IMG/VR virus record: IMGVR_UViG_3300037424_000597
Coordinates: 1-26,978 of that record
Source: a virus
Lineage: Duplodnaviria; Caudoviricetes
DNA: 26,978 nucleotides
Strand: one strand, 5' to 3'
In this document: positions 3,026-7,559 of the stretch, piece after piece
How positions within the stretch are numbered: position 1 is the first letter of the stretch
How the letters are laid out: each line of letters opens with the position of its first letter
Position numbers and translations under genes: made by a program
The notes under the pieces: generated by a model
The model's database searches: none
What the model saw: only the letters and a program-made list of their open reading frames with translations
Told to the model about the DNA's origin: nothing

Positions 3026-3448
3026 TCATGGGGTGTCCTCTTTGTGTCTGGTGCTGGCTTCTGCCATTAAATTCCAGACAGTTTCTCCGATCGGGTCAGA
3101 AGTAAAATAGCGGATATTGAGATCCTTGGATTGAGCGTAGGCAATTTCCCGGGTGGTGCTTTCGCCGATGTAATTGGAGACGTTGACCACAAAGATTTCC
3201 TGGGCCAGGTCGATTTTTCTCAGGTGCAGTTCATCCATGGCTGCGGCCACGCCTTCATACTCCGCTAAATGGCTGGTGGGCAGCTCTTCGCCGTACCACC
3301 AGGGCAAGAGATGCAGGCCCATGGTGATGGCCTGTTCGTTTTTTTCTAAGAGCCAGGCACAGACGGCCATAACATCGCAGAATTTGGAGGAGCCACAGAG
3401 GACAATGATTTTGGGCTGATTCATTTTTTCACCATTAATGTTTGCCAT
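3026..3448 (-). CDS. nucleoside 2-deoxyribosyltransferase-like / DUF4406-like fold phage protein (start likely 3448)
   Basis: KIIVLCGSSKF ... DELHLRKIDLAQEIFVVNVSNYIGESTTREIAYA pattern; GGAGG SD before ATG 3448. Confidence 0.65.
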   Translation of the reverse strand: MANINGEKMNQPKIIVLCGSSKFCDVMAVCAWLLEKNEQAITMGLHLLPWWYGEELPTSHLAEYEGVAAAMDELHLRKIDLAQEIFVVNVSNYIGESTTREIAYAQSKDLNIRYFTSDPIGETVWNLMAEASTRHKEDTP

Positions 3449-4336: not shown

Positions 4337-4531
4337 TTATGATTTGGCACAAAAAAACAATAGAAGTAAAAAACAAATAGGAAGCAGTAAAAGTAAAAAT
4401 AAAGGGGTCATTTCTTTCCAACTATAGTTGTTATTATTATTGTGATCTCCAGAGGTTAAAGTCAAACGAGCTCTAAATTTCCTCATATTTCTTTCGGGCT
4501 TACTTTCAAAAGCATAAAGTAACCAATCCAT
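4337..4531 (-). CDS. small protein with C-terminal hydrophobic (membrane) segment
   Basis: TAATG coupling to the upstream gene; LFLLLLLPICFLLLLFFC stretch. Confidence 0.5.
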   Translation of the reverse strand: MDWLLYAFESKPERNMRKFRARLTLTSGDHNNNNNYSWKEMTPLFLLLLLPICFLLLLFFCAKS

Positions 4532-4824
4532 TATTTGGCCCCACCATAGACTTTGTTAAGAATATCACCGGGCTTGAATGTTTTAGTTTGGTCGTAGGCG
4601 GTAAGGGCTTCTTTTAATTCCTGCCAATTAGAATTATAACCATCGGTTGAAAGATATTTTCTAATAGCCAAAACCAGTTTGTCTTTAGCCTCCAACTCCT
4701 TCGCCTGCTCCTCAATCGTCTCAGCAGCTTGATTAAGGTGCTTGGCTATATCCTCAGCCGGCCCTTCATCAGCCGCTACATAAACGCACATTGCACATTT
4801 TCTTAATTGATCAGGGGCGATCAT
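4531..4824 (-). CDS. hypothetical coiled-coil protein (start reassigned to ATG 4824)
   Basis: GGAGGAGGAGGA SD ends 6 nt before ATG 4824. The 5' extension in the ORF track coincides with the structured RNA. Confidence 0.7.
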   Translation of the reverse strand: MIAPDQLRKCAMCVYVAADEGPAEDIAKHLNQAAETIEEQAKELEAKDKLVLAIRKYLSTDGYNSNWQELKEALTAYDQTKTFKPGDILNKVYGGAK

Positions 4825-4838
4825 AATTAATCCTCCTC

Positions 4839-4945
4839 CTCCATCATCAGAGCAAGACTTACTTGCTGACAGTGGAGTTAGAACAGGAAGCTTAGCAACC
4901 CTCACAAGACGCTCGGCGACTCGTGCTAACCCCACCGTTTCGGAG
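4839..4945 (-). ncRNA. type II hammerhead ribozyme
   Basis: Minus strand reads: CUCC (4945-4942), GAAA (4941-4938), stem III ACGGUGGGGUUAG/CUAACUCCACUGU (13 bp, 2 GU), GUC cleavage triplet (4870-4868), stem I AGCAAG/CUUGCU with UAAGU loop, CUGAUGA (4850-4844), U, then GGAG pairing with CUCC (stem II). The full core is present in the correct order and the element is wholly intergenic. Confidence 0.88.
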
Positions 4946-4948
4946 TTT

Positions 4949-5428
4949 TTACTCAGGATACACGGCCGAGGTATCCAACTGTATCCTCTCCTTGTTATCC
5001 TTTCCGGTTTGCTTACTCACCCTTCCATGGAACCTTAACCCGACGGTCTTATCTAAATCCACTTCGCCATCAGTTAAGTAATCATCTAAAATAACTGCCT
5101 CATTCCCATCCTTCACAGCTGCTCCGATAGCAGCCATAAATTGATAGAAAAAACCTTGAGGGTCATAAGGTCTCTTAGCCATAGCGATCTTCTCCGGTGA
5201 GGCGTAGAACATAGTAGAATGGAAGAAAGGCTTACCACTAAACTCCTCGGGTTGTAAGACCCTAAGCCTCCAGTTAATAAAAGACATGGTGAGCTTGGGG
5301 TTATCCTGGTCAGAGACTTCGCTAATCCATCCTTTGTCTCCAGGCTCACCAACCTCAAAAAGATAATCACCTACAGGTAACTCATCAAACATTTTCCCTT
5401 TGGGACCAAGTCCTTCTAGAATTGCCAT
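4949..5428 (-). CDS. DUF669-like single-stranded DNA-binding protein
   Basis: FDELPVGDY.FEV ... INWRLRVLQPEEFSGKPFF ... VGLRFHGRV pattern; same operon as a Sak4-like ATPase; strong AAGGAGG SD. Confidence 0.65.
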   Translation of the reverse strand: MAILEGLGPKGKMFDELPVGDYLFEVGEPGDKGWISEVSDQDNPKLTMSFINWRLRVLQPEEFSGKPFFHSTMFYASPEKIAMAKRPYDPQGFFYQFMAAIGAAVKDGNEAVILDDYLTDGEVDLDKTVGLRFHGRVSKQTGKDNKERIQLDTSAVYPE

Positions 5429-5431
5429 TGT

Positions 5432-5602
5432 TTAAAATTCCTCCTTTATGCCTTCAAGTAGTTGTTTTGCTTCGTCCAAAAGCTTGTCCTTTTGGGACTG
5501 TTGGAGTTTAAGTTTAGGTTTCTTAGCTTGGAGAGGATATGGACGCTCTCGGCTGGTGCGAAGTTTGGATAGTTCGAGCATTAAGTTCTCACGTAGGCTC
5601 AT
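5432..5602 (-). CDS. 56-aa basic hypothetical protein (below ORF-track cut-off)
   Basis: MSLRENLMLELSKLRTSRERPYP...IKEEF*; fills the operon gap exactly. Confidence 0.6.
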   Translation of the reverse strand: MSLRENLMLELSKLRTSRERPYPLQAKKPKLKLQQSQKDKLLDEAKQLLEGIKEEF

Positions 5603-5620
5603 TTCATAGGGTTCCTCCTT

Positions 5621-5836
5621 TTAGGACCAACGTTTGATGGCTTTGTCTATAGCCTCTTCTAGGCTGTCAGCATATTCACAGTCCTCAGAGTCTAGATGGT
5701 CTGAGTCAGTTTCATAGGAATCAAAGTAACCAACTCCAAACTCTCCTGCTCGTGTGAATAGTATTAATTCCATTCCATCCGATTTGTGTTGTCCTTGTCT
5801 TTGGAGTAGCTCTTCCAATCCTTTAGTCCTCTCCAT
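5621..5836 (-). CDS. hypothetical acidic protein
   Basis: Operon-packed ORF ending in the common phage 'ADSLEEAIDKAI' type motif. Confidence 0.65.
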   Translation of the reverse strand: MERTKGLEELLQRQGQHKSDGMELILFTRAGEFGVGYFDSYETDSDHLDSEDCEYADSLEEAIDKAIKRWS

Positions 5837-6008
5837 CTTCTAAGTCCTTCTCTTCTACAGGTTCTACCCCACAGCATGGAGTAGTATACTCAACACACTC
5901 TTTCCAAACCTTACTCCCCATGCAGTCCTCATGCGCTCCAAGGTCTTCGGAGTCTATATCTTCGAGGGAATAAGACTCTTGACAGATTGGGCAGGTGTAG
6001 GTTGGCAT
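5823..6008 (-). CDS. small acidic Cys-rich protein
   Basis: YTCPIC ... TPCCG motifs. Confidence 0.65.
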   Translation of the reverse strand: MPTYTCPICQESYSLEDIDSEDLGAHEDCMGSKVWKECVEYTTPCCGVEPVEEKDLEDGED

Positions 6009-6012
6009 AGGG

Positions 6013-6747
6013 CTAGTCCCTCTTAATTTTCTCTAACCAATCTATCATATCTGATACCCCCATATAATACCCAACCCAGCCATTAAAGAAAGGAGATCTT
6101 AATATCTCTTCGTCTTCATCATTAATCAACCAGCCTGAAAAGTTTAGTTCCTTAGAGAGTTGAGGACTCATAAGTAGTGCACCGTTTATGATAGCAAAGT
6201 GCTTGTCCACATTTTGGCTGTCAATCTTCTCTTTAAACACCTCTGGATAAAGATTCTCTAAGGCTTTCTTGGTAGCAGAGCAACCCTCTGCATGGGTCTT
6301 GAGGATGTTTTCTTTGGTGGTGGTGATGGTTTTATCCTTCCATTCTGTTAGGTCTGTTTCTGGATAGCCATTTCTAGTGCCATCAGCCCATTGTACTGAG
6401 TACCAGTCCGTAGGACCTGGTACTTTGATTATAGTTCCAACTCCTATTTCTTGGGTTTTATAGCTTGGGTTGGATAGTTCGTCTATTGATTTTAGAACCA
6501 CTCTGTCTCCTGCTTTAAAAGTTGGCATGGTTTCTTTCCTCCCTTTTATTATTTGCTCTGCCCATTGTTGGGCCTTTAAGTACTCACCTTTGGTTCCATG
6601 CATGGTATCTATGGGGTCTATGTATACTCTGCCTTTATACAAACGCCACTCATGAAATGTATAACTACCTAGCCAAGCTAAAGAGTAACCTTCTGTATGG
6701 TATATACTTTGAGTAGAATAACCTTCTTGCTTTTTCCATTTCATCAC
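6013..6747 (-). CDS. modular hypothetical protein with an SH3-like central domain
   Basis: FKAGDRVVLK...GVGTIIKV...YSVQWADG....Y...DL is SH3/KOW-like; internal SD + ATG at about 6528. Confidence 0.65.
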   Translation of the reverse strand: MMKWKKQEGYSTQSIYHTEGYSLAWLGSYTFHEWRLYKGRVYIDPIDTMHGTKGEYLKAQQWAEQIIKGRKETMPTFKAGDRVVLKSIDELSNPSYKTQEIGVGTIIKVPGPTDWYSVQWADGTRNGYPETDLTEWKDKTITTTKENILKTHAEGCSATKKALENLYPEVFKEKIDSQNVDKHFAIINGALLMSPQLSKELNFSGWLINDEDEEILRSPFFNGWVGYYMGVSDMIDWLEKIKRD

Positions 6748-7559
6748 TTTCTACCCTCCCATGCTTTTAGTATTGTACTCCAATCCTCACTCCACTCTTT
6801 AGAGAGCACCACCTTAGCAGGCAACTGTCTACTCGTATCCTGAGCATCCCAATATTGAGAAGGTTGAAAGTGAATTACTCGGGTGTCAGAGGTCTCTATG
6901 GTTTGATGCTTGGCAAGACCTATTAAAGCAGCATCAGGAGCTACGACCTTTCGTAAATCCTTTTCTTGCTCTCCTATTGGTAGGTCAATGGTTAGATAGC
7001 CTACTATATCAAAAGCCTCTTTGATTTTACGGTAGGTTGATGTTGCACCACTTCCTACGAAGGATGGGGTGGCCTTTTGGAACTTTCGGGCTTTTATTTC
7101 TACCTCTACCATATTAACATGGCAAGTGCCTACAAGAGGAAGCCCTAAGTTTCCCATGTCTCGAAGCCATCCTATAAACTCCTTGGTGATAATAGCCCAC
7201 CCTTTTCCATGGCCTTTGCCGCCGTCTAGGTCGGAGGGGTAAGCTACTTGCATACGCTTACACTCGTGGGTATAACAGAACTCGTAGATTACATTTAAGA
7301 GGTCAATGCCTATCCAAGAGTAGGGTTTAATATTCTCTCCTTGTTGGAGTGTTTTGAGTAAGTCTTTGCAGTCCATCCAATTCCGAACTTGGACTACATA
7401 GCCAGGTAGAGCTTGACAACCCGAGTCTGGGTCGGTTATAAGGATGTCTGGGATAGAGGCAAGAAAGCTACTCTTACCCATTCCAGACTCAGCCATAATA
7501 AGCCATTTGAAGGCTGTTGGAGAGAGGTTGGGGGATTGTGGTGAGGTTGGGAGTTTCAT
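6744..7559 (-). CDS. AAA_24 / Sak4-like P-loop ATPase (phage recombinase)
   Basis: Walker A AESGMGKSS, ILITDPDSG, Walker B WIGIDLL, 'G.GW', LVGTCH, FDIVGYL; lies with SSB and exonuclease genes. Confidence 0.85.
   Translation of the reverse strand: MKLPTSPQSPNLSPTAFKWLIMAESGMGKSSFLASIPDILITDPDSGCQALPGYVVQVRNWMDCKDLLKTLQQGENIKPYSWIGIDLLNVIYEFCYTHECKRMQVAYPSDLDGGKGHGKGWAIITKEFIGWLRDMGNLGLPLVGTCHVNMVEVEIKARKFQKATPSFVGSGATSTYRKIKEAFDIVGYLTIDLPIGEQEKDLRKVVAPDAALIGLAKHQTIETSDTRVIHFQPSQYWDAQDTSRQLPAKVVLSKEWSEDWSTILKAWEGRK

Follow-up and report, generated by a model that had tools for sequence, protein, structure and literature searches.

A candidate type II hammerhead ribozyme with a conserved three-way junction in stem III, located between two genes of a tailed-phage operon

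Type II hammerhead ribozymes are common in bacteria, and hammerheads have been found flanking prophage genes, where a role in mRNA processing was proposed (PMC3088659). In that account most type II hammerheads, although not all, form a pseudoknot of at least 4 pairs that joins loop I to the sequence following stem II on its 3' side, and this contact is critical for speed. Hammerheads between phage genes are already known, and the class has thousands of copies in phage and bacterial DNA. The roles of these hammerheads are mostly undefined, and a 2019 review calls most genomic ribozymes "functional orphans" (PMC6765202). In eukaryotic RNA viruses, ribozymes just upstream of open reading frames are reported to promote translation (PMC13725137), and engineered hammerhead switches mask a ribosome binding site until cleavage occurs (PMC12192606). 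The CChMVd(+) viroid hammerhead carries an extra A between A9 and G10.1, and a U at this place raised trans-cleavage 3-4 fold (De la Pena and Flores 2001, in PMC3705267). Here we describe a 107-nucleotide (nt) RNA from a tailed phage that is probably a type II hammerhead able to cut itself, though an atypical one, in which stem III contains a conserved three-way junction. The DNA that we studied is the whole of the 26,978-nt IMG/VR virus record IMGVR_UViG_3300037424_000597 (hereafter the window), which has an estimated completeness of 31%.

The element (4945-4839, minus strand) occupies the spacer between two genes and lies on their coding strand (Table 1). CUGAUGA at 4850-4844 and GAA at 4941-4939 supply the core bases, with one U inserted after A9, and all three core helices can form, with 6 base pairs (bp) in stem I, 4 bp in stem II, and 13 bp in stem III. 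Loops close stems I and III and stem II is open, as in the type II architecture. The A15.1-U16.1 pair (A4938-U4869) and a non-G base at position 17 (C4868) are also present, and the same bases occur in L012, the related locus with which we compare the element below. The outer helix of stem III joins 4938-4926 with 4881-4869 through 13 contiguous pairs (10 Watson-Crick and 3 G.U). The roughly 44 nt within it form two small hairpins, giving a three-way junction. An earlier sequence-only reading of this spacer had placed each hammerhead part exactly here, and both the letters and their folding agree with it. Its background statements, that hammerheads occur in intergenic regions of phages and bacteria and that some viroid hammerheads have an extra base after A9, likewise agree with PMC3088659 and PMC3705267 (CChMVd(+)), respectively. 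A second copy of the stem III core, sought in the window with up to 3 mismatches allowed, was not found. We also considered whether the site could be a transcription terminator and rejected this, as no U run follows stem III and a terminator scan lists none at the site.

The evidence that the spacer encodes a functional RNA comes from comparison with related phages. We aligned at least 15 homologous loci (L001-L015), of which three pairs are duplicates and one, L015, is a weak partial match; the scan of metagenome contigs covered 44 of 64 parts, and the loci taken from it are among the matches listed. Among those matches, one locus, L012, has the same spacer element, which begins right after its stop codon and continues until the contig terminates 4 nt beyond the predicted cut site. 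Within the element, 70 of 83 nt are identical. Fourfold-degenerate sites are less alike, with matches at 51 of 93 for the Sak4-like gene and at 12 of 32 for the OB-fold gene next to the element, a difference which indicates that the spacer RNA is under purifying selection. Identity with L012 is about 50% at the 3' end of the OB-fold gene and rises at the A directly before CUCC, and the best-conserved neighboring gene is 77% identical overall. CUCC, GAAA, U16.1, C17, and AGCA (the first 4 nt of stem I) are all kept unchanged. Of the 13 differences, 5 fall in loops or the junction and 8 fall within six base pairs of stem III, five of which stay standard pairs in L012. Two of the kept pairs have changed on both sides (4936/4871 from G.U to C-G, and 4895/4891 from C-G to U-A), and three G.U pairs become Watson-Crick pairs.

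Table 1. Positions of the hammerhead-like element, its flanking genes, and the RNA found in the same slot of more distant relatives (window coordinates unless a locus is named)
Feature	Position	Strand	Remarks
CUCC	4945-4942	(-)	5' strand of open stem II; begins 4 nt past upstream stop; identical in L012
GAAA core (G12 A13 A14 A15.1)	4941-4938	(-)	identical in L012
Stem III domain	4869..4938	(-)	outer helix and three-way junction
Hairpin A of stem III junction	4925-4903	(-)	from folding
Hairpin B of stem III junction	4901-4885	(-)	from folding
GUC triplet (G16.2 U16.1 C17)	4870-4868	(-)	predicted cut 4868/4867; L012 reads AUC
Stem I hairpin	4851..4867	(-)	AGCAAG 4867-4862 with CUUGCU 4856-4851, 6 bp; loop UAAGU
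CUGAUGA core (C3 to A9)	4850-4844	(-)	from sequence and Rfam alignment register
Extra U between A9 and G10.1	4843	(-)	insert in Rfam alignment
GGAG, 3' strand of stem II	4842-4839	(-)	first unit of purine run; stem II is 4 bp
Purine run GGAGGAGGAGGA, Shine-Dalgarno	4842-4831	(-)	distal end 6 nt ahead of ATG
Upstream gene	4949..5428	(-)	159 amino acids; stop UAA 4951-4949; predicted OB-fold protein resembling single-stranded DNA (ssDNA)-binding proteins
Downstream gene	4531..4824	(-)	97 amino acids; ATG 4824-4822; without known family
Different structured RNA	L001:3160-3292; L003:3046-3252; L004:2988-3132 (to contig end); L009:2986-3146; L014:697-880; partly L010:1150-1265		slot after OB-fold gene in distant relatives

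A permissive Rfam scan of 4780-5000 aligned Hammerhead_II (RF02276) to the element end to end (model positions 1-66 of 66), in the type II register that the sequence-only reading had assigned. This alignment departs from the model in two places only, where it inserts 55 nt within the loop of stem III and the one extra U. The score was 20.2 bits with an E-value of 0.061 (221 nt x 4227 families), which by our own arithmetic rescales to about 0.002 for a single family over the whole window. Several observations nevertheless weigh against a working hammerhead, beginning with these scores, as 20.2 bits is far below the Rfam gathering score of 37 for this family. Rfam at gathering thresholds gave no match anywhere in the window, and the element also went unreported in a 68.6-kilobase Rfam scan at E<=5 and in a Hammerhead_II search of the window's own whole record. 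As controls for the search of the window's own record, 14 ordinary genomes were examined, and 11 of them gave sub-threshold matches (E up to 10), so a score below the cut-off says little on its own. The same model found nothing in any of three virus records from related phages.

We also used a descriptor that asks, in register, for GAA and an A-U-closed stem III, a U and then any base but G, a directly adjoining stem I hairpin, CUGANGA, at most one inserted base, and a closing stem II, with thresholds written as the minimum pairs in stems I/II/III. Scanned over both strands of the window, it finds exactly one site at every threshold tried. In 300 dinucleotide shuffles of the window there were no sites at 5/3/5 and 0.023 per shuffle at 4/3/4, and 106 megabases (Mb) of first-order Markov sequence held 39 sites at 4/3/4, 6 at 5/3/5, 3 at 5/4/5, and none at 6/4/6, the observed lengths. 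In a single window such a site is improbable. If about 250,000 windows are scanned, a few sites as good as this one should still arise by chance, so the motif alone is no proof and comparative evidence is needed.

It is with that evidence that one alternative, a chance look-alike in a spacer without selected RNA function, can be weighed, and we consider it very unlikely. A chance site would have an Rfam score under the cut-off, as this one does, and would be unsurprising given that sub-threshold matches occur in ordinary genomes and that the Markov rate yields some such sites when many windows are scanned. It would not be expected, however, to share more with L012 than do the fourfold sites of the best-conserved neighboring gene, to differ from L012 by changes that are compensatory or lie in loops, or to have the spacer's fold z-score of -2.7. 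The L012 comparison already largely contradicts this alternative.

The same comparison has features that do not favor catalysis. It offers a single homologue that ends early, and its support extends to stem III and the 5' half of the core, not to CUGAUGA, stem I, or stem II. The sixth changed pair, C15.2-G16.2 (4937/4870), is C.A in L012, which places a mismatch beside the core and turns the triplet into AUC. According to PMC1636495, an AUC triplet is catalytically good if 16.2 is paired, yet it is almost absent from natural hammerheads. The sequence-only reading had itself named homologous spacers in related phages as its test, and as far as L012 extends, the 5' core half is retained there and stem III covaries. 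In addition, all 18 nt at 4913-4896, in the stem III interior, are identical in L012, and hammerhead function does not account for such strong sequence conservation inside stem III. More distant relatives carry other elements in this slot, with no hammerhead found there; a relaxed descriptor run over L001-L015 returned weak matches only, the majority of which clearly overlap coding regions; their stems have 2-4 pairs, except for a single stem III of 7 pairs in L010.

Searches for further copies were negative throughout. A 'distant' blastn of 4400-5500 found no homologues in phage records, and neither did tblastn with the 159-amino-acid (aa) protein of the upstream gene. In viral contigs, three patterns (the stem III core, the 5' core with the base of stem III, and the gapped whole hammerhead) gave 0 matches each, and the Sak4-like protein was not found there either. 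Genome contigs gave 0 matches to one element pattern and none in a protein-guided scan.

Predicted folding is likewise mixed. In the 134-nt transcript (4822-4955), the hammerhead fold has -43.8 kcal/mol versus -45.5 for the minimum free energy (MFE) fold, in which the 3' strand of stem I takes up the purine run and stem II is left unformed. In a 171-nt context, pair probabilities are 0.83-0.97 for stem III and 0.60-0.95 for stem I, but stem II reaches 0.011, because the purine run prefers pairing with codons 3-6 of the downstream gene. For a nascent transcript that ends at 4822, the hammerhead fold including stem II is the MFE fold, and the modeling therefore leaves room for a kinetic window for stem II that would be short. 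As for tertiary structure, the loop I sequence UAAGU pairs with the 3' tail over 3 bp at most, or over 4 only by opening the closing pair of stem I; the sequence-only reading had also seen no clear loop I contact. At the Mg2+ levels of a cell, a hammerhead that lacks a tertiary contact should cleave slowly.

The pairing of the purine run is also of interest in its own right. At 4800-4850 (minus strand), predicted pairing joins both the run and the start codon to codons 3-6 of the downstream gene (GAUCGCCCCUGAUC), and most G residues of the run have an unpaired probability of 0.02-0.06, in the full transcript and in the 3' cleavage product alike. This pairing could possibly act as a translational brake independent of the hammerhead, judging from the models.

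Alternatively, the spacer may encode a conserved structured RNA that does not cut itself, made of the long stem and the three-way junction, in which the hammerhead-like core is coincidental or a decayed remnant. We give this explanation real but clearly lesser weight. Such an RNA could be a processing site for a host nuclease (it has about 22 stacked pairs), a 3'-end stabilizer, or a protein-binding or translational operator, and CUCC together with the pyrimidine-rich stem I strand would mask the purine run. A nuclease site of this kind would resemble the RNase III sites that lie between the early genes of phage T7. No terminator-like U run follows the stem here. A noncatalytic RNA would account for a stem III interior more conserved than a hammerhead needs (the 18 invariant nt). 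That the single-stranded GAAA and UC are unchanged in L012 speaks against it. It would fit the mismatch beside the L012 core, the tertiary contact that we looked for and did not find, the absence of stem II from both the 134-nt MFE fold and the 171-nt context fold, the unrelated structured RNAs that fill the slot in more distant relatives, and the Rfam score below the cut-off. It would also require, however, that around a given hairpin GAAA, UC, CUGAUGA, a directly adjoining hairpin of 6 bp, and a closing helix of 4 bp all fell into register by chance, which is very improbable given that no 6/4/6 site arose in 106 Mb.

We therefore favor the self-cleaving type II hammerhead, given that all core bases and the three helices are present in the right geometry, that the spacer RNA is under purifying selection, and that stem III covaries. 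Cutting by this hammerhead would likely split the leftward operon mRNA between C4868 and A4867. In the course of transcription, stem III would fold first and stem I would follow; stem II, formed by CUCC and the first GGAG, would then close the core transiently, and the chain would be cut after C4868. The upstream OB-fold message would be left with the stem III junction and a 2',3'-cyclic phosphate at its 3' end, and the downstream message would start with a 5'-OH and the stem I hairpin. After the cut, stem II would be a 4-bp intermolecular helix that should dissociate, and because of this the downstream ribosome binding site would be freed from the upstream RNA. The conserved stem III junction probably serves a further purpose, for instance in protecting the 3' end or in binding a protein, since its sequence conservation exceeds what a hammerhead needs.

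The position of stem II also raises the potential for interplay with translation. The sequence-only reading had derived stem II from the Shine-Dalgarno run of the next gene; GGAG is indeed the first unit of the purine run, but the best-placed part of the run is the distal GGAGGA, 6 nt before the ATG, and not the GGAG of stem II. The size of ribosome footprints places both strands of stem II within ribosome reach. A ribosome terminating at 4951-4949 would cover CUCC, and a 30S subunit bound to the purine run through the distal GGAGGA would cover GGAG, so that translation and cleavage are predicted to be mutually exclusive. One could extend this to a natural translation-gated hammerhead, in which terminating and initiating ribosomes decide whether the mRNA is cut, while the stem III junction adds another regulatory domain that might, for example, bind the ssDNA-binding-like protein encoded next to it. 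We regard this extended scheme as speculative and unlikely.

The element lies in a minus-strand module of tightly packed genes, among which the 124-nt spacer (stop 4951-4949 to ATG 4824) stands out. Products of this module include a Sak4-like AAA_24 protein, a PD-(D/E)XK nuclease, and an HNH protein, and a plus-strand module from 15350 onward encodes terminase, portal, and capsid proteins. The gene for the Sak4-like annealase precedes the OB-fold gene, with three small open reading frames in between. The sequence-only reading had called the 159-aa upstream protein an SSB, a label that finds no support in Pfam or PHROGs, neither of which gave a match. The label does gain something from structure, as the AlphaFold model (mean pLDDT 87.9) has an OB fold, and a PDB structure search with it returned the plasmid ssDNA-binding protein PrgE as the top match (E 4e-4, TM 0.48-0.57), followed by bacterial SSBs with weak scores. 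This protein has 30 metagenomic homologues, the closest being P0001, P0002, and P0003 at 95%, 77%, and 65% identity. No Pfam or PHROGs family was found for the 97-aa downstream protein; its relatives include P0033 and P0034, and another assembly encodes a protein of exactly these 97 aa (P0031). When sequencing runs were searched with the site, one run matched, probably that of the source sample, and no RNA run was among the matches. A contig from that run is identical to the window across 4700-5100, with zero variants, and nothing in the same run aligned to L012.

L012 derives from a phage that is fairly closely related and whose genome is mosaic. Its Sak4-like protein is 81-82% identical to that of the window (81% by BLASTP), and its OB-fold protein is 48-55% identical. 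Comparing 5432-7559 (minus strand) of the window with L012:394-3025, we found that the Sak4-like and 56-aa proteins are 82% identical and that identity is 55-62% for the proteins that lie between these two or follow them. Such a mosaic pattern of relatedness suggests recombination within the module.

In the more distant relatives, a different structured RNA, 130-200 nt long, follows the OB-fold gene in this slot (Table 1). This RNA has an invariant hairpin, CCCGG-CGGGAA-CCGGG, near its 5' end, and toward its 3' end it has a helix whose loop contains the conserved GUACUAAGAAUC, except that the L003 loop is longer and different. Its outer closing helix covaries, with double changes in 5 of 16 predicted pairs. 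Rfam gave no match to it at the gathering score, none at E<=5 in a wide scan, and none at E<=10 with L009 alone, and it may be an undescribed RNA class.

Still other elements occupy the slot elsewhere. At L002:2984-3080 (and the same in L006) there is a tRNA-like element with a 7-bp acceptor-like helix, GCUGCGG with CUGUAGC, and a canonical-looking T arm, GGGGUUCGACUCCCC. ARAGORN, run on the window and on 12 loci, the L002 element included, called neither a tRNA nor a tmRNA, and the L002 spacer scanned alone gave five weak sub-threshold Rfam matches only, the tRNA-like ones being insignificant. Directly after the OB-fold stop in L013 (1271-1359), the Rfam freshwater-2 RNA (RF02980) matches over its full model length and ends at the start of the next gene, at 32.7 bits versus a cut-off of 49.9. 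Short motifs also recur immediately ahead of consecutive genes in these loci. GGCCCGCCCCAAGGCGCUACUAAGG occurs twice in L009 (3135-3160 and 3401-3426); a hairpin with AAAAGGAG after it occurs twice in L002 (3082-3140 and ~3335-3375), with a weak DUF2815-RNA-like match of 16.2 bits; and L010 (1383-1396) and L014 (921-934) have CAGCCAGCCUAAUG in common. These recurring motifs may be phage promoters or processing signals.

This site, if it cleaves, would be a clean test case between two small genes. Given that a stop codon lies on one side of the closing helix and a ribosome binding site on the other, the interplay of cleavage, translation, and mRNA stability would, if the reading is true, be accessible with simple reporters. 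The element would also point to a blind spot of Rfam, in which members with large conserved insertions fall under the cut-off, and hammerhead counts in viral metagenomes would then be underestimated. A slot that holds unrelated structured RNAs in related phages would be a hot spot that may yield new RNA classes. Were the translation-gated scheme true, the locus would be the natural equivalent of the engineered switches in which a hammerhead hides the ribosome binding site.

How, then, does this locus compare with known systems? Like the T7 RNase III hairpins, it has a long interrupted helix in an operon spacer, and cutting would leave a 3' hairpin on the upstream message; at the T7 sites, however, a host enzyme cuts and no hammerhead core is needed. 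Like the type II hammerheads described by Perreault et al. 2011 (RF02276; PMC3088659), the element has a complete consensus core and is intergenic, on the coding strand of a phage operon. It differs from RF02276 members in scoring 20.2 bits, below the cut-off of 37, and in having about 55 extra nt in stem III, arranged as a conserved three-way junction. It differs from them further in that a U is inserted after A9, that it lacks a loop I/tail pseudoknot of at least 4 bp, and that the 3' strand of stem II belongs to the purine run of the next gene. With the CChMVd(+) hammerhead, as described in PMC3705267, it shares one extra nucleotide at exactly the same core position, although that ribozyme is a type III viroid hammerhead with loop-loop contacts that serves rolling-circle replication, whereas here we see a type II element in the operon of a DNA phage. 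Finally, as in the engineered switches of PMC12192606, a hammerhead helix here involves the ribosome binding region. Unlike those switches, the element is natural and uses only the upstream GGAG of the 12-nt purine run, leaving the distal GGAGGA free, and its effect on translation is putative. By analogy, engineered hammerheads that free a ribosome binding site would be the nearest functional analogue of this stem II arrangement.

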